Shown: positions 20,354 through 63,401 of the stretch, in pieces
Numbering within the stretch: the first letter of the stretch is position 1
Layout of the letters: every line of letters begins with the position of its first letter
From: Escherichia phage LorandFenyves_Bas91
DNA length: 64,000 bases
Direction: 5' to 3' (one strand)
Sequence record: PQ850614.1
Notes under the pieces: model-generated
What the model saw: only the letters and a program-made list of their open reading frames with translations
What the model was told of the DNA's origin: nothing
Database searches by the model: none
Translations under genes and position numbers: made by a program

Positions 20354-21100
20354 TTAGAACGGGCTAGAGTCGTCATCTTCATAAGTAGAAGCTGGTTCTT
20401 TGTCAATCGTAGGGATTGAAGGAGTAGCTTCTTTCTGCTCTGTTTCAGAAGCACGAGTAATTTCACGACCAGCCAGAGGCATGTTCTTAGCGTCATTAGC
20501 TTGAGTAAGCAGGTTGCGCTGGAACGGGAACATCAGTTGATAGGATGCTACGTTCTCATCGGTTTCAGCATACGGTTCGAAAAATACCAGAGGGCTACGA
20601 GCTTCACCAACTGCTGCACGATATTTGGTTGGGATTGGAGAAATGGTTTTGATGGAGTTTTTAACTTCACCAGCTTTGTTAGTGTAAGAGTTAACCAGAA
20701 TGTTAACAGGCTGACCTAACAGCACATCCTTGAACCAAGACAGATCACCTTTCAGTGCTTGAATACTTGGGTCAATCATCTTGCAAAGATCAAGAATACC
20801 AGAGTTCTTAGCTCGTGGGTTTACATCATAACTCTTGAACTGGCAAGCCGGACGTGGTTCTAATGCCTTACCATCGGAATCTTTACCAGTAGCATCAACA
20901 CCAATCAGCTCGAAAGCCAAATCCATACGGAAAGCCGGATTCTTAGGAGTTACTGCTTTGGTCTTCGGGTCAATCCAAGGGTCACGATTGTGAACACCCA
21001 AACCTACTACACGAACGATACGTGCTTCGTATTCACCATCAGGGATTACATCGTAGTTGGATTTACGGGAAGCAGTTGCGATAGTTGGAATCATAGACAT
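20354..21100 (-). CDS. single-stranded DNA-binding protein
   Basis: 248 aa ending in the acidic tail EDDDSSPF (acidic C-terminus ending in Phe, as in SSB and T7 gp2.5). Confidence 0.6.
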   Translation of the reverse strand: MSMIPTIATASRKSNYDVIPDGEYEARIVRVVGLGVHNRDPWIDPKTKAVTPKNPAFRMDLAFELIGVDATGKDSDGKALEPRPACQFKSYDVNPRAKNSGILDLCKMIDPSIQALKGDLSWFKDVLLGQPVNILVNSYTNKAGEVKNSIKTISPIPTKYRAAVGEARSPLVFFEPYAETDENVASYQLMFPFQRNLLTQANDAKNMPLAGREITRASETEQKEATPSIPTIDKEPASTYEDDDSSPF

Positions 21101-21159
21101 ATTTTAATTTCCTTATTTAATTTGAAAGATTGTTGCTCTCTTTGAGCGGTTATGTATAG

Positions 21160-21168
21160 TATACATTA
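21160..21168 (-). promoter_or_regulatory. TAATGTATA motif upstream of SSB
   Basis: Exact 9-mer on the minus strand ~60 nt upstream of the SSB start; a near-copy faces it on the plus strand. Confidence 0.45.
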
Positions 21169-21231
21169 CGCTTATACCGATAAGAGTACTATATAATATA
21201 AGTATCTTTGGTAGTAGATATAACACACTAG

Positions 21232-21240
21232 TAATGTATA
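21232..21240 (+). promoter_or_regulatory. TAATGTATA motif, plus orientation (antisense to neighbouring genes)
   Basis: Exact 9-mer in the 400-bp AT-rich intergenic region upstream of SSB. Confidence 0.35.
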
Positions 21241-21516
21241 TATTGTATAGCTGATAAAGTTATTGCAGGCTTGTATATTGGGCAATTCACAGAATCCCTT
21301 GCAAGTACCGAAGGGCAGGAGCCACCTGCGAGATAAAAATAGAGAATTAAGGAATCCTTGATTTAGGTTGTAGGGACTCCTAGGGACTTTGATTCTCTAT
21401 TTAAAAGAATATTAATTACTTATTACCTAAATAATTAACTAACTTACTTAAACCAAATTCAAGAATAATAGATAAAAAGATTATTCCTAAGAAAGCTAAA
21501 AAGTAAAGGATATAAG

Positions 21517-21699
21517 TTACCATTCAAGTAAACCTTTAAAGTTAGTTTGTTCTACTATCCTCTGATAATGAAGATTAGAATCAGCTTGTTTCTTTAACAT
21601 CTCATTATATTGATCTCTGATAGAGTCTTTATAAACTACAGGTTCTTTAAATACTGAGATCTTCTTTTTCTCAGAGTTCAGAGGTATATTTTCTTTCAT
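21517..21699 (-). CDS. hypothetical small protein
   Basis: 60-aa ORF; overlaps the next gene's 3' end. Confidence 0.3.
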   Translation of the reverse strand: MKENIPLNSEKKKISVFKEPVVYKDSIRDQYNEMLKKQADSNLHYQRIVEQTNFKGLLEW

Positions 21700-22153
21700 A
21701 TTCCACTCTATTTTTAGTTGCTTCTTCTAAAGTATCAAAAGACCCTAAGTACTTAGTTCTACCCTTAATTGAGATGTTTGATATGTATTTACCCTTTCTG
21801 TTTAGATAAACACCTTTTACACCAGAGGTGTTATTAATGTTCAACCCTTTATTCCAAGAGTTTACTTCATTATTAACTTCCCTTAGATTAGAGATAGAGT
21901 CATTTGAAGGGTTTCTATCAATATGGTCTATCTGATCTTCAGGTAAATAACCCTTAGCAGAGTACCAAATCACATGATACCTGTACACTTGATGGCCTTT
22001 AATCCTTATCAGGCATCTTCCGTCTTTTCTGATAGACCCTACTTCCATTCCTTTCCTACATTTTGTCCCGTTATGAACCTTCCAGAAAACTTTCCCAGAA
22101 GATAAATCACAATCAAAATATTTGTCAAGGAGTTCCTCTATCATATCAAACAT
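21671..22153 (-). CDS. HNH homing endonuclease with AP2-like DNA-binding domain
   Basis: YHVIWYSAKGYLPEDQIDHIDRNPSNDSISNLREV (HNH) plus SGVKGVYLNRKGKYISNISIKGRTKYLGSFDTLEEA (AP2-like). Confidence 0.65.
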   Translation of the reverse strand: MFDMIEELLDKYFDCDLSSGKVFWKVHNGTKCRKGMEVGSIRKDGRCLIRIKGHQVYRYHVIWYSAKGYLPEDQIDHIDRNPSNDSISNLREVNNEVNSWNKGLNINNTSGVKGVYLNRKGKYISNISIKGRTKYLGSFDTLEEATKNRVEYERKYTSEL

Positions 22154-51013: not shown

Positions 51014-51089
51014 TGGTCGGGACGGAAGGATTCGAACCCTCGTAAGGCGAGTTAGAAGCTCGCTGCCTGTTCCACTAGACTACGCCCCG
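51014..51089 (-). tRNA. tRNA-Arg (anticodon UCU), CCA encoded
   Basis: Hand-folded cloverleaf: acceptor CGGGGCG/CGTCCCG, D-stem GTCT/AGGC, anticodon stem GCGAG/CTCGC with loop CTTCTAA, T-arm GAGGG-TTCGAAT-CCTTC, discriminator A plus CCA. Confidence 0.85.
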
Positions 51090-56611: not shown

Positions 56612-57511
56612 TTATGCCGCCTGACGTGCCGCCATAATTTCAGCCGCTTTACGCAATACTTCTTCCTCTTCTGCTTTCGCCGCTTGTTCGGTACGGGTAG
56701 CAACCGTTGAAGAGATACGACCGCGCAGACTTTCTAACTTCTCCTGCATAGCTGCAACAGTCTTTTCCATTTCATCAGCATATGAATCGAGTGATTCTAA
56801 TTCCTTGCTTGATGCGTTCATCAGGTAGTTATCAGAGATCGCTACCGTTGAGGCCGTGACTTTCTTGATGAGTGAATCAAAGGACTTTTTAACCTTGCCT
56901 ACTTCTTCACTTAAGGCAATGGTGTTATCACTAGTTGCGCCGTTGCGCTCATCAGCCAGTAATTTGGCTTCAATACGGATTGCATTCAAGCGTTCAACCA
57001 AAGCGTAAATATCTTGGTTAAAATCTTCCTTGTTTTTCGCCGGAATTTGCAGGTGTGCCGCCACGTTGTCATTACAACCCTTGTAAAAGTTAGGATTATC
57101 GACTTCAATTTCACGGCCTAAAGCAAAGTTTTCGAAAGCGTTTGACCAGCGAGCGCGGTTTTGTTCCATTTTGGTTTTAATTTGCGCTTCTTTCGCGTCT
57201 TCTTTAGCTTTCGCCTCACCTTCCAGATTAATCCACTTTTTACGACCATTTGCCGCATCGGTGTTAAACTTGATAGGAGTTAAGAAAGTAATTGCGGTAG
57301 CGATAACATCCATATCACGGAAACGTTCGGTTAACAGGAAGTCAACCGCCGCCTGCAATACATCTAACTTCTTACCATTACTGCGGAAGTGCTGTAAGTG
57401 CCCTAACAGGAAGTTAGAAACATCTTGTTTGATCGCCGCGTTATTGCTACGAATGTTGTTAGCCAGTGCATTAAAACCGGATTCGTTAACCAGAGTAAAG
57501 ATTTTAGCCAT
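56612..57511 (-). CDS. early protein with coiled-coil C-terminal half
   Basis: ATG at 57511 after AAAGGTGA; first gene downstream of the ORF-free promoter region. Confidence 0.5.
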   Translation of the reverse strand: MAKIFTLVNESGFNALANNIRSNNAAIKQDVSNFLLGHLQHFRSNGKKLDVLQAAVDFLLTERFRDMDVIATAITFLTPIKFNTDAANGRKKWINLEGEAKAKEDAKEAQIKTKMEQNRARWSNAFENFALGREIEVDNPNFYKGCNDNVAAHLQIPAKNKEDFNQDIYALVERLNAIRIEAKLLADERNGATSDNTIALSEEVGKVKKSFDSLIKKVTASTVAISDNYLMNASSKELESLDSYADEMEKTVAAMQEKLESLRGRISSTVATRTEQAAKAEEEEVLRKAAEIMAARQAA

Positions 57512-58433
57512 AATATTCACCTTTCAATTGTAAGGGCGCTATTGCCCCGCTCTCTATGAGCTTGTTTAAGTCACTATTAACTTATCTCTAACCACTCACT
57601 TTTTAAGTAGTTACAGGTAAGCGAGGCGGTCTTATCAGGAGTTAACCTTGCCGCCTCCTTATCCGTGATGTTTCATCTGGTATCTTTAATTAGTCGCTAT
57701 AAACGAAGCCGACCTGATAGCGATGATCAATCATCACAATAAGGCAGTGCGTCCGACTCTAATTAGTTACGTTATTGTAACCGTCGGCAATATCGTTTAC
57801 TTTGCTTTCGCTCTCGCCTATCCTTTTGTATCAACTCTCAATCGCTAGTCATCGCCCACTACGGGATACTATTGCGAAAGAGTCATTGACCGTCTAATGT
57901 TCCGACGTTTTATATCTTTCGGCAAGTTTACTACATAAACCGACTATGTACTTTCATCATAAGATGAATCTCAAGCCGTTCACATCGTAAACGTTCACAC
58001 TAAACCTTATTGTTAAATAGCAATTTGCCACTTTTTAACCACTCCCCGCCGCTCTCAATTGAGCGTTAATTCGTCGGGATTGCCTACCCTGATTAACTTC
58101 TTTCACCGTAGCACCGTTTTAGCGATGACCGCCGCTACCCTTAACCGTGGGCGATTAGCTTAAGTCTTTGCGTGTACTCGATGAATCCGTTTTATCAGTG
58201 GTGACGTTTCCAGTAAGGGAATGTAAGATTGTTTTCTCTGATAGTTTAGAGAATCTTACACCGTTTTATCTGGTATGTTATCTGATGGTTATTATCATCT
58301 AACATATTCAACCGATATAGGAGAATGTTTAAATTATTAAAGAGCGGTAAATCTGTCAGTGTGCTTTCTCACACTACGCAACTGTTAGCCGTTGTTACGC
58401 TTTCCTTAAGCGGTGATTTGCTTAAGTGTGCTC

Positions 58434-58462
58434 ATTATGAATCATGTTGTTTTCGCTGTCAA
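58434..58462 (-). promoter_or_regulatory. sigma70-type promoter (TTGACA-N17-CATAAT) with A-tract UP element
   Basis: Minus strand reads AAAAAAGTGG-TTGACA-GCGAAAACAACATGATT-CATAAT-GAGCA. Confidence 0.6.
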
Positions 58463-58919
58463 CCACTTTTTTAATCTTTTTCGTCGTTCCCGCTATTGGG
58501 AGGATATATCAATCAGCTTTATTTGATTGAAGACTAAGCGGTGATGCTTATCTTATGATTCATATTGTTAAAGAGCGGTTACTACATTTACAGCTTAACA
58601 CATCGTGTTAGCTTGTCAACTCTTTTTATCATCTTCTTTTAATTCCTTTCCCTTGTCTCGCGTGAATCTATGCGAAAGGGCAAGATGATAAGTCTGATTT
58701 GTCTTTTAGGAATCTAGTGCGCTTTCAAGCATTGACCATTTGAAAGTATCGAACAAATGAGGCTTATTTTGTTGCTCATCGTCCGCCTGTTCACGTATGA
58801 ATCAGGAATCAATTCTAGTGGTCAACTAAGCGCCTTATAGTAATGACGTTCCCGCCACCTGTAAGACAAATCATATTTTTAAAGAGCTGGATGTTTCACG
58901 TCATCGCTGACTTATGCTC

Positions 58920-58948
58920 ATTATGTATCAGGCTTTTTCTAGTGTCAA
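58920..58948 (-). promoter_or_regulatory. sigma70-type promoter (TTGACA-N17-CATAAT) with A-tract UP element
   Basis: Minus strand reads TTGAAAAAGAGTA-TTGACA-CTAGAAAAAGCCTGATA-CATAAT-GAGCA. Confidence 0.6.
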
Positions 58949-59045
58949 TACTCTTTTTCAAGTATTTTCACTTTCTAGCCTGATTTTTAAAGAGCGGGGC
59001 AATTTCTTGCCTTGTATGTTTTACATCGTACCCGATGAAATGAAG

Positions 59046-59054
59046 TATACATTA
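59046..59054 (-). promoter_or_regulatory. TAATGTATA motif at the upstream edge of the ORF-free region
   Basis: Exact 9-mer on the minus strand. Confidence 0.4.
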
Positions 59055-59227
59055 ATCAGATGAGGTTGCAATAGGGTAAAGCAAATTATTTTAAACTTTT
59101 TTTGAAAGGTGGGAAGTATAAGAGAATGCGCGCGGGATAACATACGCAAAACAGGCTGTAAATCACTTTCTAACGTCCTGTAAGCCATTCTAACGAGCTA
59201 AAAGGGAGTAAGGTATACAATCACCTT

Positions 59228-59257
59228 AGAAAAGAAAAAAGCCTCATAGTGAGGCTT
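59228..59257 (-). terminator. intrinsic terminator
   Basis: AAGCCTC-ATAGT-GAGGCTT hairpin followed on the minus strand by TTTTTTCTTTTC. Confidence 0.6.
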
Positions 59258-59333
59258 ATAGGAAGGATTTAAAGCATCAGATAAATTATGACCATAGGCA
59301 TGACTACGGCACAATAAAGAAGAAAGATTAAGC

Positions 59334-59699
59334 CTATGGATTTACACATTGACCGTTACCGGATGCCATTTCATTCATGGACTCATCAAAGAGCGTCAAC
59401 GATGAGCGCATCAAGTGATCCACCGTAATTTGTTTACCGGTAGTTTCATTTACCAGTTGAATAGTTTTAGCGTATGATTGTACATGTTCAAAATCATCAA
59501 CATGCAAAATAATAACTTTAGGTGACTGTTTACCAGTTTCATAGTTTTCTATCAAATAGGTGCACTGTAAACCGTCAACCATATCAGGGGAGAATGTTGC
59601 AGCCTTTACACTACCCATAGCCGATAGCAGGACACCTAACAGGAGAACAACCAGAAAGAAGCCTACAACCGTTTTAACGACGAATTTAATAAACCACAT
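59334..59699 (-). CDS. membrane-anchored/secreted protein
   Basis: N-terminal hydrophobic anchor FFLVVLLLGVLLSAMG. Confidence 0.45.
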   Translation of the reverse strand: MWFIKFVVKTVVGFFLVVLLLGVLLSAMGSVKAATFSPDMVDGLQCTYLIENYETGKQSPKVIILHVDDFEHVQSYAKTIQLVNETTGKQITVDHLMRSSLTLFDESMNEMASGNGQCVNP

Positions 59700-59794
59700 A
59701 GCAATAAACCTTTAGTTAGAAAACGTAAGAATACATCATATCAGTAATGAACAGCAGGAAGGTCGCACCAAACAAGCAACGCCAAAAATAATCA

Positions 59795-60073
59795 CTATTC
59801 ATCGTTGCTATTCTCGCCAAAAAATGCTACGCTAATCTGTTCCACTTCTTCCAGCGACAGGAGAATCCCGCGTTGGGCTAAATACTTCCCAACAGTTAGA
59901 TAATCTTGCACTAAGCAGACAATAGGAAAGCGGATAGTTTGTATCTCACCTTTGGAAAGAAAAGACAAATAACCAACGTCGGTTGATTCATCAAAGGATA
60001 GTGTAACGCCACCGTAATTATGCGTAGCAATTAACGCAATAGTTTCATTTCCCATAACGTTTCCAATCCTCAT
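59795..60073 (-). CDS. hypothetical small protein
   Basis: 92-aa ORF. Confidence 0.4.
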   Translation of the reverse strand: MRIGNVMGNETIALIATHNYGGVTLSFDESTDVGYLSFLSKGEIQTIRFPIVCLVQDYLTVGKYLAQRGILLSLEEVEQISVAFFGENSNDE

Positions 60074-60275
60074 AATGATTAACTAGTGCCTGATAATCGT
60101 CAGATGATAACTCACCGCCTAAATAGGCAACGGTTATGCGTGCTTTGTATTCTGACAAACTGCATAGCGCGGGAGCGGATAACCTGCTTTCGCCATAACA
60201 TCCTAGCACTTCAACGATACAACCGTTTAAAGATACTGATTTATTAATCACGATATGGTTAGCCATTAATATCAT
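60045..60275 (-). CDS. hypothetical small protein
   Basis: 76-aa ORF overlapping neighbours by short junctions. Confidence 0.4.
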   Translation of the reverse strand: MILMANHIVINKSVSLNGCIVEVLGCYGESRLSAPALCSLSEYKARITVAYLGGELSSDDYQALVNHYEDWKRYGK

Positions 60276-60522
60276 CCTTAATTAGCCCATGATTGAGCAG
60301 GTTAGCCAGTGATAAGCCACCGTCAAAATAAACAGAACGAAAATCAGCGCGGGTAATTTCAAGGCCAGCAAACTTCAACCAGTTTTTAGCTGATTGAAAA
60401 TCCATTTTGCAAAAAGTAATAATAGGAACAGTAAGCTGACCATCGAGCGTATTAAACATAATAGCGGTATCGCCAATAAAACAAGAAAAGCCACTAGATA
60501 ATCTAATTTCTTTAATAGCCAT
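60259..60522 (-). CDS. hypothetical small protein
   Basis: 87-aa ORF. Confidence 0.4.
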   Translation of the reverse strand: MAIKEIRLSSGFSCFIGDTAIMFNTLDGQLTVPIITFCKMDFQSAKNWLKFAGLEITRADFRSVYFDGGLSLANLLNHGLIKDDING

Positions 60523-60558
60523 TATTTATACTCCCAAAAGATTGGCAAATTAATTTAT

Positions 60559-61431
60559 TCACTTACTAGCCTTAATACAGTTGGCTAAATTAACGTGAAC
60601 GGTATAAACAGCGTTATCAGCGTTATTGTAAACAGTCGTGGCGATCATCGACTCATTGATCGGGCCATAGCTAACAAGGTTAGTAACGGCTTTAACGTCT
60701 TCATAACGTTGTACAGTGCCGAAAGTCACCATATCCGCATCGTTATCAGTACGCTTAAGCACTAAATCACTGTTAGGCTGATTATCTAACGTTTTAGATT
60801 GAAAGAGAACGCCATCATTAGTAACGTTGCTAAATTTCATCTTTAGCACGATATTATTGCCGTCACTATCCGCACCGTTGCAAATCATCCAACCCTTATT
60901 GATGGAACTAGAGAAGACACTAGCGGCATCAGTTGCAGGAGCAGGACTAGCGATAGCCTTATCAGAAAGAGATGTGACCAGTGCACTAACACCAATAGCT
61001 GCAACCAGTGCATAACTTGCCAGATTAACAGACTTCATAATCTTACTTGCAACAGTAGGCTTGATTGGCTGTTTCTTGTTTTTCTTATTCCATGCTTCAA
61101 CCATGACAGACAAGCGGGATAATTCAGCTTTCACATCGCGGCATGACTCAGGCCAATCCTTCTGATTCCAGCTATCTAAATTTGCTTGAATGTAGCAATT
61201 AATAGCGTCCTGCATATCGGTAAAACCGTTCTCTTTGAACGTGCTTTCATCTTCACACTGTAAAGCGTTCGCAGTAGAGTTAATGATCAAGCAAGCCAGC
61301 ATTACAGAGTTTTTGAATCCTTTACGTGCACTTTCGTTTTCCATCCACGCATCAGGACTACCAACGGTTAAGCCTAAAGAGGAAAGGCTTTCGTTTGCTT
61401 TGTTCAAGTGGTTAATTGCTACTTTAGACAT
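60559..61431 (-). CDS. bitopic membrane protein (cytoplasmic N-domain, one TMD, periplasmic C-domain); first early gene
   Basis: AAGGAA RBS; TMD SYALVAAIGVSALVTSL; sigma70-type promoter ~40 nt upstream. Confidence 0.5.
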   Translation of the reverse strand: MSKVAINHLNKANESLSSLGLTVGSPDAWMENESARKGFKNSVMLACLIINSTANALQCEDESTFKENGFTDMQDAINCYIQANLDSWNQKDWPESCRDVKAELSRLSVMVEAWNKKNKKQPIKPTVASKIMKSVNLASYALVAAIGVSALVTSLSDKAIASPAPATDAASVFSSSINKGWMICNGADSDGNNIVLKMKFSNVTNDGVLFQSKTLDNQPNSDLVLKRTDNDADMVTFGTVQRYEDVKAVTNLVSYGPINESMIATTVYNNADNAVYTVHVNLANCIKASK

Positions 61432-61475
61432 TTGATATTCCTTCTGGTTGATGAAAACTACAAACTACACTCGCA

Positions 61476-61503
61476 ACTATATATTAAAGGAAAAGGCTGT
61501 CAA
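61476..61503 (-). promoter_or_regulatory. sigma70-type promoter (TTGACA-N16-TATAGT)
   Basis: Minus strand reads GAAAATAAATGG-TTGACA-GCCTTTTCCTTTAATA-TATAGT; shares GGTTGACAGC with the 58462 promoter. Confidence 0.55.
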
Positions 61504-61620
61504 CCATTTATTTTCTAACTTTCTTGCATCCTACTGAAAACTAAAGGAATTTAATTTACTAAACTTTCTATACTCAGGGTATCAGCTTACTAGCTATTGT
61601 TACTTTATAACACCAATTCT

Positions 61621-62070
61621 ACGGGCAGCAGACCAACAGACCAGGACACGGGGAGCATACAACCGCAGGACAGACCACGGGGAAATATAGCAAGATAGTG
61701 CGGTAATAATATACCACTTAAATAATTGTATAACTCAAACATCAAAGACGTTCGTACTTCGTACTCACAAAGGCACGCTGAAAAAGAAAGTAATAAAAGA
61801 AACAATTAAAAGAAATACAATCATCCACTTAATTAATACATATATCATTATTGCACTCATAATCATTACTATTGAAACTATTATCAACGTAACTATGGGG
61901 AGCTGAACGGTAACAATACGGTATTATTAGACCTGTTATTATCACGCCTTAACAGACCGTTATCAGAGTATAGCCTTTCTCTCACTCTTTAAAGGGGAAC
62001 TAAATAAACGGGTAGCTAATGTATTGGGTAGTATACACGGGGAAATAATTACGGGGAGTAGGCACGGGGA
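61621..62070 (+). repeat. array of direct heptamer repeats (C/T)ACGGGGA(A/G)
   Basis: Exact ACGGGGA at ~61648, 61677, 62037, 62051, 62064 (and 62294), all same orientation, plus degenerate copies. Confidence 0.65.
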
Positions 62071-62521
62071 ACGCTGGAACGTTGAAAGGGAAGGTAAAGG
62101 CATTGCCAATAACCCTTTTTTAAATGAGGACTCCCCCTTTTTAGGAAACGCGCGGCGAGCGGCTAGCCCCATTAGGTCAAATCAGAATTTTAAACTCTTA
62201 TATATAAGGTTGAAAGAGAACTTATGTGGAAAATTAAGTTAATCATTAAGCAATTCAAATGTGATCATGAGTACTATCGGATACGCAAAGCTTACGGGGA
62301 TGAAAGAGTTCACACCCTTTATAAGTCCACTTGGAGATGTAGTAAATGTGGTAAGCTTAAACACAGCACATGGATGGATAGGCCTTAACGTGACATGGCC
62401 TTTATGGGGGTGCCTTTATGACAAGCCCTTTACTTCAGCGTACACGGGTTGTTGGTATGGGGTGGCCTTTACGGGTTAGATATGCCTAGCCCTTTATACT
62501 CTTATTCAGAGGAGAAGAATT

Positions 62522-62776
62522 ATGAATTTAGTATTAGACTTTCTATCAGAGATGGTGCCTCGGTTTAGAACGGAGACATACGCTTTCGTGGTCAATAGTG
62601 ACTCTGAAGAAGGGATGGAAGCTACATGCTTAGGTCGTCTTGTTGATTTAGATGATGAAACAGATTTCGATATTACAATTGATGTAAGTAGTTTTGGTTG
62701 GCTCTTCTTCAGAGCATTCCGCACTTACAGAAAAGAAACATACAAAGATTACAGCAAGGGAGATACAAATGAATAA
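62522..62776 (+). CDS. small acidic protein
   Basis: GGAGAAG RBS; 84 aa, D/E-rich. Confidence 0.45.
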   Translation: MNLVLDFLSEMVPRFRTETYAFVVNSDSEEGMEATCLGRLVDLDDETDFDITIDVSSFGWLFFRAFRTYRKETYKDYSKGDTNE

Positions 62777-63401
62777 TTTAATCCAAGCGATGGACCTTAA
62801 CGAGTACAATTCACAGCTATGTCGTTCTGGTTGTAGCTTACAGCATTTAGAAACTATGGGAAATGTTTCAGGATTGGCTGTACAAGATTTATATAGTGGA
62901 AGTATTCTTAAACCAACTATTACGGAGAAGAAAGATATGATGAGTTTAGTAGAACAATACCGTGGACTTCAAGTCGGTACTATTGGTGATAAATATGAGA
63001 ACTACTACAAAGATCGCTCAAAAGTACTTGAAGAAGTTGCACGGGCTAAGCCTTCTACTCTGGAGGTAGTTGAATATGAATCTACTAAACATGATCACCT
63101 CCCTGATTATGCTCGCGCAATGATTGAGATGATTGAAGAAGCTGAATATGAAATGCTCCATGATTACATTACCTCCAAAGATGAATGGCATCGTGATGTT
63201 CGAATCGAAGAAGATGGTACAGAAACAATTACGTGGATTCACAAGAGTGAGTTAGTAGACGACGCACTGCGAGACTACGAAAAATTTTTGGTCGACGGCT
63301 CTATTCTTTTAGAGGAAGAGAAGGGTGCAGAACTTCCGTGGGAAGGTGAGACGATTGCTCTAGGTAAGATGTTTAACCTGTCCGTTGGTGATTGTAAGTA
63401 A
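62769..63401 (+). CDS. hypothetical protein
   Basis: ATG at 62769 after AAGGGAG (track start 62694 overlaps the previous gene); 210 aa. Confidence 0.45.
   Translation: MNNLIQAMDLNEYNSQLCRSGCSLQHLETMGNVSGLAVQDLYSGSILKPTITEKKDMMSLVEQYRGLQVGTIGDKYENYYKDRSKVLEEVARAKPSTLEVVEYESTKHDHLPDYARAMIEMIEEAEYEMLHDYITSKDEWHRDVRIEEDGTETITWIHKSELVDDALRDYEKFLVDGSILLEEEKGAELPWEGETIALGKMFNLSVGDCK

Follow-up and report, generated by a model that had tools for sequence, protein, structure and literature searches.

The five minus-strand genes that lie close to the right genome end of Escherichia phage LorandFenyves_Bas91 (Bas91; record PQ850614.1, analysed here as a window of 64,000 nucleotides) raise two questions, i.e., what their products may do in the infected cell and whether the genes were acquired separately from the rest of the genome. 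The window belongs to a Kuravirus. By megablast, the region 57500-62300 shares 99.3% identity with vB_EcoP-CHD5UKE1, 95.7% with SU10, and 91.8% with phiEco32, and nucleotide and protein identity together with a conserved gene order, from the genome end to the homologue of gp124, support this membership. In the alignment of the records, the genomes of phiEco32 and SU10 have their physical right end at window position 62164. The direct terminal repeat has a length of 193 bp according to the SU10 paper (PMC4281155), and we infer that a single copy of it occupies positions 61972..62164 (no strand).

The block itself (59334-61431) corresponds to genes 128-125 of phiEco32 and to CDS125-121 of SU10, with which both the gene tables and the gene order agree. 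Its DNA is 89-95% identical to that of these phages, and the orthologues of its first protein (A) are 98-100% identical. The block is the already annotated promoter-proximal early accessory operon of phiEco32/SU10-like E. coli phages: five genes (A to E) on the minus strand, one sigma70-type promoter (TTGACA-16-TATAGT, 61476..61503, minus strand, 11/12 consensus matches), and its own intrinsic terminator (AAGCCTCAcTATGAGGCTT followed by a T-run; 59229..59257, minus strand), which a scan detected as an 8-bp stem with a T-run at 59257-59239. The initial annotation had placed the promoter, the five ORFs, and the terminator at these positions, and each of them was found there, on the minus strand. 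The architecture is not new, as it was published before for SU10, where a single sigma70 promoter precedes CDS125 and a terminator follows CDS121 (PMC4281155). The phiEco32 125-128 and SU10 CDS121-125 genes are orthologous and syntenic, with identical promoter and terminator and the same early class; the phiEco32 record differs in the missing annotation of gene C, and otherwise there is essentially no difference from the Bas91 operon. In the phiEco32 and SU10 records all the operon products are named hypothetical, and the accessible literature does not mention export signals, domain fusion, or composition.

The operon genes have been assigned to the early class, transcribed by the host sigma70 RNA polymerase (PMC4281155, PMC8948821). 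This agrees with part of the previous description of these genes as the earliest ones; that they are also the first to be transcribed had been deduced from position alone. Such a first place for the operon is not supported, because three further strong sigma70 promoters are located 2.5-3 kb downstream of the operon promoter and others ahead of the left-end genes, and either genome end might enter the cell first. The operon promoter can be aligned in SU7, where its counterpart is annotated as a promoter, and in Bas86, and it is conserved across genera; apart from it (window 61461-61520, 86.7%), nothing of the block matches any longer in Bas86. Promoter-like matches as a whole are not above chance in the region (21 found by the scan vs 20.2 expected). 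The terminator is annotated in SU10 and SU7 and is 83.6% conserved in SU7 and Bas86.

Gene A (60559..61431, minus strand; phiEco32 gp128, SU10_0125) is an ORF of 290 aa whose product appears to have three parts: an N-domain predicted to be cytoplasmic (residues 1-120; 61072-61431), a hydrophobic segment that looks like a former signal peptide with an AIA|S site (residues 134-156; 60964-61032), and an 8-stranded beta-barrel predicted to be periplasmic (residues 162-290; 60562-60948), all encoded on the minus strand. The hydrophobic segment is the only one in the protein and is preceded by basic residues (KIMKS + VNLASYALVAAIGVSALVTSLS + AIA|S). It is rich in Ala/Gly/Ser and weakly hydrophobic (mean Kyte-Doolittle score 1.8-1.9). 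The -3/-1 AXA motif and the Cys pair 184/285 are invariant among the orthologues. The model of the C-domain shows an N-helix followed by eight strands (pLDDT ~75), and a fold search matched it to up-and-down barrels, with de novo designs as the best matches, i.e., a generic fold. The 8-stranded barrels of lipocalin/avidin-like proteins, of the CBASS effector Cap15, and of PliC-type PhiA share 5-14% sequence identity with that of A. Cap15-type effectors are defined by a pair of transmembrane helices at the N-terminus and a nucleotide-binding barrel in the cytoplasm, whereas A has one transmembrane segment and a barrel that is predicted to be periplasmic and disulfide-bonded, which makes a role related to cyclic nucleotides unlikely.

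The N-domain of A, whose structural model has low confidence, has a different distribution. A profile search retrieved 48 representatives, most of which have only residues 1-120 in common and continue with unrelated C-termini, and tblastn located the domain in Webervirus-like, Phapecoctavirus, Avunavirus, Pantoea, and other phages, the closest one outside the subfamily sharing 58% protein identity. A might be a fusion in which a cytoplasmic N-domain, one that moves between unrelated virulent enterobacterial phages, is joined to an anchor and a periplasmic, disulfide-bonded barrel. The former Sec signal peptide would now serve as the signal-anchor, with cleavage at AIA|S perhaps still taking place.

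Gene E (59334..59699, minus strand; phiEco32 gp125), delimited by its ORF and by hydrophobicity, encodes a 121-aa protein with an N-terminal signal peptide or anchor (residues 1-33, with K5/K9, a 19-aa h-region, and VKA|A) followed by an 88-aa beta-rich domain, predicted to be periplasmic. The cleavage motif and the Cys46/Cys118 pair are invariant among the orthologues, and those of Bas86 and 101114BS3 carry a classic signal peptide, MKIKLAVCAALFAVSSVSHA|AV. The E family is restricted to this subfamily (26 clusters). Its AF2 model was poor (pLDDT 52) and unfit for a fold search, and the 'terminase' label attached to E is a PHROG artefact. A and E are not paralogues (hhalign probability 0.14%). 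We propose that E could be a small disulfide-bonded beta-protein exported via its signal peptide or anchor. Next to gene E there is a small hydrophobic ORF (59716..59820, minus strand; 34 aa, or 28 aa from the ATG) with a DYFWRxLFxAT motif that matches the N-terminus of the protein E variant P0145 (MIRDYFWRVLFVATVALF...), and this ORF is probably a relic of an alternative signal peptide.

Cleavage and topology were assigned by applying sequence rules by hand. Both A and E show the basic n-region, the h-region, and the small-X-small residues at -3/-1 of Sec signal peptides, and in relatives the textbook signal peptides MAIKAMQAINLASYALVAAIGVSAIATNVQA|K and MKIKLAVCAALFAVSSVSHA|A precede equivalent mature domains. 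The two proteins had been described as membrane proteins; they do contain hydrophobic segments and appear to be envelope-targeted, but both segments look like Sec signal peptides. The conserved AXA cleavage sites and the textbook signal peptides of the relatives make it more likely that A and E are periplasmic than that they are integral membrane proteins, and the conserved Cys pairs lend indirect support to the predicted export.

The three genes between A and E are small. Gene B (60259..60522, minus strand; 87 aa; phiEco32 gp127) is an ORF with a GGGAG ribosome-binding site, and its product has a pI of 5.6. Its alleles are hypervariable, since the 76 records detected by tblastn mostly share 60-80% identity, even where D is ~95% identical, and the gene is missing from SU7/Bas86-type operons. 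B gave no Pfam, NCBIfam, or PADLOC match, and its 'polymerase' label derives from a PHROG name alone and is spurious. Gene C (60045..60275, minus strand; SU10_0123) is an ORF of 76 aa, or 73 aa from the likely start at 60266, that encodes a protein of pI 6.0; it is annotated in SU10 and CHD5UKE1, but not in phiEco32, and a distantly related counterpart occurs in SU7, Bas86, and 101114BS3 (35-40% identity, E 2e-5). Gene D (59795..60073, minus strand; phiEco32 gp126) is an ORF of 92 aa, or 86 aa from the likely start at 60055. Its product is mildly acidic (pI 4.4; 12 acidic vs 5 basic residues), has no PDB sequence match, and shares 42% identity with SU7 gp102; in the 77 records detected by tblastn its identity is bimodal, either 90-99% or <60%. 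Judged by their sequences, B, C, and D appear to be small cytoplasmic orphans. Searches of Pfam, NCBIfam, PADLOC, and PDB sequences with the five operon proteins and gp124 yielded no significant match, and the PHROGs returned for them only same-family matches of unknown function; an 'ABC transporter' label among these results is spurious.

The outline of the operon is kept across Gordonclarkvirinae, with synteny conserved across genera, and its proteins diverge much faster than the neighbouring gp124 (35-59% vs 79% amino acid identity). Compared with SU7/Bas86-type phages, the barrel of A, which lacks the N-domain fusion there, shares 42-43% identity, C 35-40%, D 42%, and E 57-59%. Of the 109 matching records, only 29 contain at least 80% of the block DNA, in comparison with 97/97 for the neighbouring spacer. 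Horizontal exchange is supported by this mosaic, hypervariable operon and by an N-domain common to unrelated phages, and the operon may have evolved by rapid divergence combined with the swapping of alleles and domains, as arms-race genes do.

By eye, the block and the adjacent ORF-free region had seemed richer in CpG than the remaining window, and the computation bears this out: the observed/expected (o/e) ratio of CpG reaches 1.05 for the block and 1.20 for the ORF-free spacer, compared with 0.70 window-wide. The value of the block exceeds those of all 1053 same-size windows outside 54.7-62.2 kb (maximum 0.99). The GC content is slightly lower (0.40 vs 0.42). The high-CpG zone extends over ~7.5 kb (54.7-62.2 kb) and takes in gp120-124, with o/e values of up to 1.57; the Poisson P values of block, spacer, and zone are 2e-4, 5e-6, and 1e-14, respectively. 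The extra CpGs are found at codon positions 3-1 and 2-3 and not in CGN arginine codons. The same enrichment is seen again in phiEco32, SU10, and SU7, whose corresponding loci have o/e values of 1.04-1.07. Outside the zone, CGCG and GCGC are much rarer than expected (o/e 0.15 and 0.34), and inside it they are not (1.05 and 1.45); this right-terminal domain escapes the strong suppression of CpG, CGCG, and GCGC that marks the remaining genome. Since CCGG and TCGA do not follow this pattern, restriction-site avoidance as its cause is suggestive only.

The compositional check led to a large covarying RNA behind rRNA-type boxA elements in the apparently empty DNA next to the block. Pattern matching and the promoter scan revealed at 58009..58995 (minus strand) five rrn-type boxA-like elements interleaved with three sigma70 promoters. 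Four of the elements are exact copies of GCTCTTTAAHAAT (58995-58983, 58887-58875, 58576-58564, and 58345-58333, minus strand) and the fifth has one mismatch (58021-58009, minus strand). These five are the only matches in the 64 kb, against 0.55 expected, and the number and order of all five are conserved in phiEco32, SU10, SU7, Bas86, and 101114BS3; in phage 7-11 no boxA was found. The full rrn boxA 13-mer is UGCUCUUUAACAA. The spacer copies, (C/A/T)GCTCTTTAA(A/C/T)AAT, match this 13-mer at 11-12/13 positions, and all of them lie on the transcribed strand of an untranslated leader. Their closest known counterparts are the antitermination signals of the E. coli rrn leader (boxB-boxA-boxC) and the lambda nut sites. 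PMC3177189 lists base differences from which the first nine boxA bases, UGCUCUUUA, can be deduced. The spacer promoters are located on the minus strand at 58948-58920, about 58619-58592, and 58462-58434; the outer two come from the scan and the middle one was read by eye (TTGACA-16-TGtTAAGCT), which is consistent with the three promoters of this spacer in the SU10 paper (PMC4281155). As in rrn operons, the boxA copies are downstream of strong promoters, and the one after the third promoter is preceded by a covarying hairpin, i.e., in the boxB-then-boxA order of rrn. In contrast to rrn and nut, there are five phage-borne copies in ~1 kb and no boxC was identified. To our knowledge, no N-like protein is known for this phage system.

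Between the third spacer promoter and the gp124 homologue, conservation and covariation delimit a structured untranslated leader RNA of ~0.9 kb (57512..58427, minus strand), which makes up the main part of the CpG-rich ORF-free region. It is present in all 97 Gordonclarkvirinae records with 75-99% identity, and is conserved to the level of the gp124 coding sequence and almost without indels; among the non-coding elements of the subfamily, none is more conserved. Its consensus comprises 249 pairs in 40 helices (in the control, 98.8% of cells are paired), and 71 pairs show compensatory changes, compared with 33.9±3.5 in shuffles (0/500 reach the observed number) and 5-10 when the partners are slid. 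The MFE z-score is -8.3. Rfam 15, including GOLLD, ROOL, introns, RNase P, tmRNA, and 6S, gave no match at E<=1 in 57300-59400, and over the whole window the sole gathering-threshold match was a tRNA. A one-domain covariance model, even when run with filters off, had no hit in the leader of phage 7-11 or in ORF-free gaps beside the N-domain genes of rV5-like phages, blastn found no homologues elsewhere, and an exact-pattern scan of IMG/VR yielded three ~77-kb contigs only. A host origin of the spacer was rejected, as there was no blastn match in 5,426 E. coli genomes. We found no published description of the spacer boxA or RNA, with the proviso that Savalia 2008 and Pavlova 2012 may mention boxA motifs. 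The RNA resembles GOLLD and ROOL in being long, multi-helical, phage-borne, and supported by covariation; it differs from them in matching no Rfam family, in being the 5' leader of the main early unit, and in its occurrence, so far, in Gordonclarkvirinae only.

These data led us to propose, as an evenly balanced possibility, that the right end of Gordonclarkvirinae is a mimic of an rRNA operon that would recruit the host Nus/SuhB antitermination machinery and that contains a new RNA class. The mimic would consist of the three strong sigma70 promoters with their A-rich upstream tracts, the boxB-like hairpin, the boxA elements, and the ~0.9-kb RNA. BoxA protects long untranslated RNA from Rho, as a principle (PMC7665894), and the recruited machinery might shield the long leader in this way and allow processive early transcription over tens of kilobases. 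The RNA could then represent a new class of large phage non-coding RNA acting as a decoy, as a scaffold, or as a regulator of gp124 translation, and the variable secreted-protein operon upstream would be a separate add-on cassette. If the boxA elements work as predicted, a virulent phage borrows ribosomal antitermination for its early programme, and this would answer the question posed for this phage group, whose 'antitermination strategy remains to be defined'.

The composition had also been taken as a hint that the block was acquired separately, that is, by recent horizontal transfer from a CpG-neutral donor. This explanation would account for a CpG o/e of 1.05 in the block against 0.70 in the window, and both the mosaic operon and the N-domain common to unrelated phages would fit it. 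However, the anomaly covers ~7.5 kb that include gp120-124 and the structured RNA present in all 97 relatives, the synteny of the operon is kept across genera, SU7 is equally CpG-enriched, E. coli genomes contain no similar DNA, and the 58% protein identity of the closest N-domain outside the subfamily also speaks against a recent donor. We consider this origin largely refuted and improbable. As the zone spans 54.7-62.2 kb and recurs in SU7-type phages, the high CpG is a maintained property of the genome end and not the footprint of a recent acquisition of the block.

Concerning the function, an anti-defence or superinfection-exclusion role of the block is a plausible hypothesis. Our tentative proposal, which we rate slightly below an even chance, is that of an envelope-directed early operon, in which the exported A and E would serve for exclusion or protection, and B, C, and D would be candidates for host takeover or anti-defence. 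Right after infection, A and E might act on the envelope and cause superinfection exclusion, protect against lysis from without, or mask an envelope component. T4 Imm and Spackle and T5 Llp are small early proteins of the inner membrane or periplasm, expressed from host-type promoters and variable between relatives. The operon proteins resemble them in being small, early, envelope-targeted, and variable among relatives; they differ in that no sequence or fold relationship was detected and in that the Bas91 proteins have no lipobox. The Pfam, PHROG-function, PDB, and fold searches indicated no homology to a characterised superinfection-exclusion protein (T4 Imm/Sp, T5 Llp), and we know of no exclusion phenotype for these operon proteins.

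Instead, the operon could be mainly a cytoplasmic anti-defence cassette, with one or more of B, C, and D inhibiting restriction-modification or another defence during DNA entry, in the manner of T7 Ocr, and the exported proteins being secondary, which we judge unlikely. In the class I early region of T7, the first gene behind promoters A1-A3 is 0.3, which encodes the restriction inhibitor Ocr. Bas91 is similar in having a group of strong sigma70 promoters at one end of its genome and first products that might neutralise host defences, and it differs in that the first unit is separately terminated and dominated by exported proteins, in the lack of homology to Ocr, and in a promoter cluster that leads into the boxA elements and the 0.9-kb untranslated RNA. 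The operon genes lie close to the promoter and belong to the early class, B and D fall into divergent allelic classes like arms-race genes, D is acidic, and Gordonclarkvirinae resist restriction-modification without any known modification or inhibitor. However, the acidity of D is mild, the pI values of B, C, and D and the lack of a family or PDB sequence match do not correspond to an anti-restriction DNA mimic such as Ocr or ArdA, and no similarity to known anti-restriction or other families was detected. Moreover, B and the N-domain fusion are unlikely to be general resistance factors, because both are absent in SU7/Bas86-type operons and the whole subfamily is reported to be resistant. The resistance of Gordonclarkvirinae to restriction-modification systems is described as striking and of not known mechanism, and the BASEL authors suspect instead that the DNA is modified, with a dCTP deaminase and a nucleotidyltransferase taking part (PMC11990801).

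Two further roles appear far less probable. Rather than in exclusion, the exported proteins might act in lysis timing, either as RI-like antiholins or as lysis-inhibition factors, after release from a signal-anchor of weak hydrophobicity. The segment of A, with its composition and low hydrophobicity, resembles the signal-anchor-release (SAR) domain of T4 RI, and the products are early and predicted to be periplasmic; this role is nevertheless very unlikely, given the lack of homology to RI, holins, and spanins, the distance of the block from any lysis gene, and the conserved AXA sites, which favour ordinary cleavage by signal peptidase. T5 makes the pre-early proteins A1 and A2, which are needed for the second-step transfer of its DNA. 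By analogy, early envelope proteins of Bas91 might help to import the remaining genome, the CpG-rich 7.5 kb being the 'first-step' segment, and it is true that a distinct terminal segment of ~10% of the genome carries strong host promoters and that envelope proteins are made first. Still, two-step entry has no support in this group, there is no homology to A1 or A2, and the operon seems too variable for a core entry function, as the coverage of its DNA in 29/109 records shows; we hold this role to be, if anything, marginally less probable still.

By itself, the block offers a few concrete candidates with which to explore the early biology of a group of E. coli phages that is common but has received little study: a pair of exported proteins, the three small cytoplasmic ones, and a widely shared N-domain. 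Restriction resistance and O-antigen dependence are traits of this group, and its members are used in therapy cocktails.

The 57500-62300 region of Escherichia phage LorandFenyves_Bas91 matched 98 phage records by megablast, nearly all of them E. coli/Shigella podophages of the Gordonclarkvirinae, with vB_EcoP-CHD5UKE1 (99.3%), SU10 (95.7%), and phiEco32 (91.8%) as the best matches. The ORFs of the early block (59334-61431, minus strand) correspond to genes 128, 127, 126, and 125 of phiEco32 and to CDS125-121 of SU10, and they are annotated as hypothetical throughout. The phiEco32 and SU10 records both end at position 62164, and thus the window extends across the physical ends of the genome; a terminal repeat of 193 bp has been reported there (PMC4281155). 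The six copies of the TCCCCGTR motif in the window all cluster round the genome terminus and the terminal repeat (61647-62300, minus strand). This number, against 1.8 expected in 64 kb, was reached in 0 of 100 shuffles, and the motifs are candidate packaging or end-recognition sites.

The block encodes five proteins, A to E. The promoter, ORFs, and terminator described in the initial annotation were all recovered in place on the minus strand: a promoter scan located a sigma70 promoter (TTGACA-16-TATAGT) at 61503-61476, an ORF search yielded ORFs of 290 (A; 60559-61431), 87 (B; 60259-60522), 76 (C; 60045-60275), 92 (D; 59795-60073), and 121 aa (E; 59334-59699), and a scan found a terminator consisting of a stem-loop and a T-run at 59257-59239. 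The ribosome-binding sites and the SU10/CHD5UKE1 annotation place the likely start of C at 60266 (73 aa) and that of D at 60055 (86 aa). Promoter-like matches as a class were not enriched in the region scanned (21 vs 20.2 expected). The operon promoter site is kept across genera, being the only part of the block that still matches in Bas86, and its counterpart in SU7 is an annotated promoter. The SU10 paper (PMC4281155) places a single sigma70 promoter before CDS125 and a terminator behind CDS121, and the genes of the block are experimentally early in phiEco32, as stated in the paper on phage 7-11 (PMC8948821); therefore, the operon architecture was already known. The block is an already annotated early operon, correctly described. 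A 34-codon hydrophobic ORF located between D and E (59716-59820, minus strand) carries a DYFWRxLFxAT motif. In a metagenomic relative (P0145), protein E occurs in an alternative form with this motif as its N-terminus; judging by the motif, the ORF is probably what is left of a swapped signal peptide. A tRNA gene is found amid the early genes at 51017-51089, minus strand (Rfam, 52.9 bits).

The CpG richness of the block and of the adjacent ORF-free spacer, first noticed by eye, was borne out by the observed/expected (o/e) ratios, which are 1.05 for the block and 1.20 for the spacer, compared with 0.70 for the whole window. The late structural genes have ratios of 0.22-0.66, most genes up to ~54 kb have ratios of 0.4-0.9, with a few short ORFs above 1.0, and the genes at 54.7-62.2 kb have ratios of 0.88-1.57. 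The block exceeds all 1053 windows of the same size lying outside 54.7-62.2 kb, and its surplus CpGs occupy codon positions 3-1 and 2-3 rather than CGN codons. The lowest ratios (0.22-0.34) are those of the 6.8-9.6 kb genes, likely to encode the major structural proteins. The GpC o/e is 1.32 in the 54.7-62.2 kb zone vs 0.95 outside it, and the strong avoidance of CGCG (1.05 in the zone vs 0.15 in 1-54700) and GCGC (1.45 vs 0.34) is limited to the bulk of the genome. A GC trough (0.32), 1 kb wide, is located at 21001-22000.

The hint given by the composition was real but attributed to the wrong thing. Separate acquisition of the block, at which the initial annotation had hinted, is unsupported, since the anomaly spans the whole right-terminal domain, including the non-coding DNA that is best conserved in the subfamily, and the phiEco32, SU10, and SU7 loci show the same CpG enrichment. 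The anomaly is a maintained property of this entire domain. Its upkeep might reflect relaxed codon-level selection in weakly expressed early genes or RNA-structure constraints within the spacer, or else the zone might escape an agent that suppresses CGCG and GCGC in the rest of the genome. The authors of the BASEL study suspect an undescribed DNA modification in the Gordonclarkvirinae (PMC11990801).

The block alone is moderately interesting, and the more novel biology lies in the spacer between its terminator and the gp124 homologue. This spacer is CpG-rich, as had been claimed, but calling it ORF-free and CpG-rich missed a cluster of boxA elements and a structured RNA, both discovered because the CpG lead was followed into the ORF-free DNA. 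The GCTCTTTAAHAAT pattern is present between 58995 and 58009 as four exact copies and one single-mismatch copy, all on the transcribed strand, and it has no copy elsewhere in the 64-kb window (0.55 expected). Interspersed among these five rrn-type boxA-like elements (58995-58983, 58887-58875, 58576-58564, 58345-58333, and 58021-58009, minus strand) are three sigma70 promoters bearing A-rich upstream tracts, and three of the copies sit ~15-90 nt beyond the promoters. The fourth copy, which is the one following the third promoter, comes after a covarying boxB-like hairpin, GTGTGAGAAAGCACAC (~58370-58355). The number and order of the five copies are kept in phiEco32, SU10, SU7, Bas86, and 101114BS3. 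The full 13-mer of the E. coli rrn BoxA is UGCUCUUUAACAA. Its start, UGCUCUUUA, can be deduced from the base changes given in PMC3177189. Long untranslated transcripts are terminated by Rho, and BoxA/Nus complexes shield them (PMC7665894); therefore, a 0.9-kb untranslated leader behind boxA signals is mechanistically sensible. The boxA cluster may direct antitermination of early transcription. The antitermination strategy of the relative 7-11 "remains to be defined" (PMC8948821).

The untranslated leader RNA, of ~0.9 kb, extends from the third spacer promoter to the gp124 homologue (57512-58427, minus strand). The 57521-58700 sequence was found in 97 of 97 subfamily records with 75-99% identity, and between the third promoter and the start of gp124 it is conserved to the same degree as the coding sequence of gp124, indels being nearly absent. 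The RNA consensus, derived from an 11-sequence alignment, comprises 249 pairs in 40 helices, and compensatory double changes are observed at 71 of these pairs, against 33.9±3.5 in shuffled alignments and 5-10 in a control in which the pairing partners were slid by 1-3 columns. Likewise, 98.8% of the cells are paired (shuffles, 92.4±0.3%; slid partners, 34-46%) and the covariation score is 0.276 (shuffles, 0.141±0.005; slid partners, 0.04-0.08); the observed value was reached in 0 of 500 shuffles for each of these measures. The folded strand is the minus strand, because several G-U pairs are invariant. The minimum free energy of the single leader sequence is -281.8 kcal/mol vs -221±7 for shuffles (z-score -8.3). 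This structure, like the boxA cluster, is a firm feature of the spacer.

No Rfam family matched the leader RNA at E<=1, and a covariance model of one RNA domain had no match in 7-11 or in rV5-like phages. A literature search whose scope lay outside the two primary phiEco32 papers turned up no paper that connects phiEco32 with boxA, or Kuravirus with a non-coding RNA. An ORF-free leader, of ~1.15 kb, is likewise present in the Salmonella phage 7-11, where it runs from validated sigma70 early promoters to gene 151 (L012 65-1117 plus L011 1-100, two stretches of the phage DNA). This leader is more stably folded than shuffles (z = -4.1), but it contains no canonical boxA and does not match the Kuravirus RNA domain. 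Two long-range complementarities bracket the spacer: a 16-nt inverted repeat (15/16 matching) that joins the first boxA region (58988-59003) to a site just upstream of gp124 (57541-57556), and a predicted closing helix between the boxA region after the third promoter and the gp124 Shine-Dalgarno region (alignment A3, columns 96-106 with 936-946). Covariation was detected in neither of them, and they could possibly constitute a processing stem or a translational switch.

Protein A (290 aa) contains a single hydrophobic segment, at residues 134-156, with lysine-rich sequence ahead of it. When 20 relatives were aligned, residues ~128-290 were also seen as a stand-alone protein of 163-166 aa, whose N-terminus is a textbook signal peptide, e.g., MAIKAMQAINLASYALVAAIGVSAIATNVQA|KD in SU7. 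Since the signal peptide of the relatives lies at the same place, the putative transmembrane helix of A is a former signal peptide, after which AIA|S is still present, and A is a domain fusion. Cysteines 184 and 285, in the domain beyond this segment, are invariant. The AlphaFold model of the C-terminal domain has eight strands after an N-terminal helix (pLDDT ~75), and that of the N-domain is helical with low confidence; a BFVD fold search with A matched uncharacterised phage proteins only. The N-terminal hydrophobic segment of protein E (121 aa) is long and ends in an invariant VKA|A; cysteines 46 and 118 of E are invariant as well, and its orthologues in Bas86 and 101114BS3 carry a classic signal peptide, MKIKLAVCAALFAVSSVSHA|AV. 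These features suggest a periplasmic location for both the A barrel and E, and the exported proteins might have an early envelope-directed function such as exclusion or protection. No relatedness between A and E was detectable.

Virulent enterobacterial phages carry the N-domain of A (phrog_15368) as a mobile module. An exhaustive profile search recovered 48 representatives. In most of them only residues 1-120 are shared, and the C-terminal region that follows (0 to ~440 residues) is unrelated and in many cases contains repeats of AHxEALxMN-like motifs; by tblastn, the domain is present in Webervirus-like Klebsiella phages, Phapecoctavirus, Avunavirus, Pantoea phages, and others. In rV5-like myophages, an ORF-free gap of 1.6-1.9 kb directly follows a stand-alone N-domain homologue (L005 3370-4978 in phage anhysbys; L006 3370-5232 in phage 24-2-1). 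These gaps contain no tRNAs and resemble neither the Kuravirus spacer nor its RNA model, and the parallel in layout may be a coincidence.

SU7, Bas86, and 101114BS3 keep the layout of the window phage, i.e., promoter, secreted barrel protein, C-like, D-like, and E-like genes, terminator, ~1.8-kb spacer, and gp124, and lack both the N-domain fusion and gene B. The orthology of these operons is clear, and so is their fast divergence: their proteins share 42-43% (A barrel), 35-40% (C), 42% (D), and 57-59% (E) amino acid identity with those of the window phage, and 79% for gp124. At the DNA level, at least 80% of 59200-61520 is covered in only 29 of 109 matching records, the lowest coverage being 3%, and the B alleles are mostly 60-80% identical even among phages with ~95% identical D. 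Given this patchy coverage and the divergent B alleles, the operon is a conserved slot with fast-evolving, recombining contents.

Proteins B, C, and D lack hydrophobic segments, and searches of Pfam, NCBIfam, PADLOC, and PDB sequences assigned them to no family, with PHROGs matching only at the level of function-less families of their own kind; they could be candidates for takeover or anti-defence functions. The BASEL study reported the O-antigen dependence of the Gordonclarkvirinae and the resistance of the whole subfamily to restriction-modification systems (PMC11990801), and thus the early orphan proteins are worth testing. The absence of B and the N-domain fusion from SU7/Bas86-type operons argues against either being a general resistance factor, because the subfamily is resistant as a whole. 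The labels "terminase" for the 121-aa secreted protein (59334-59699), "polymerase / DNA polymerase B region" for the 87-aa protein (60259-60522), and "ABC transporter" for a 235-aa protein (62694-63401) have no Pfam/NCBIfam backing. These three labels have been propagated via PHROG names into many GenBank records.
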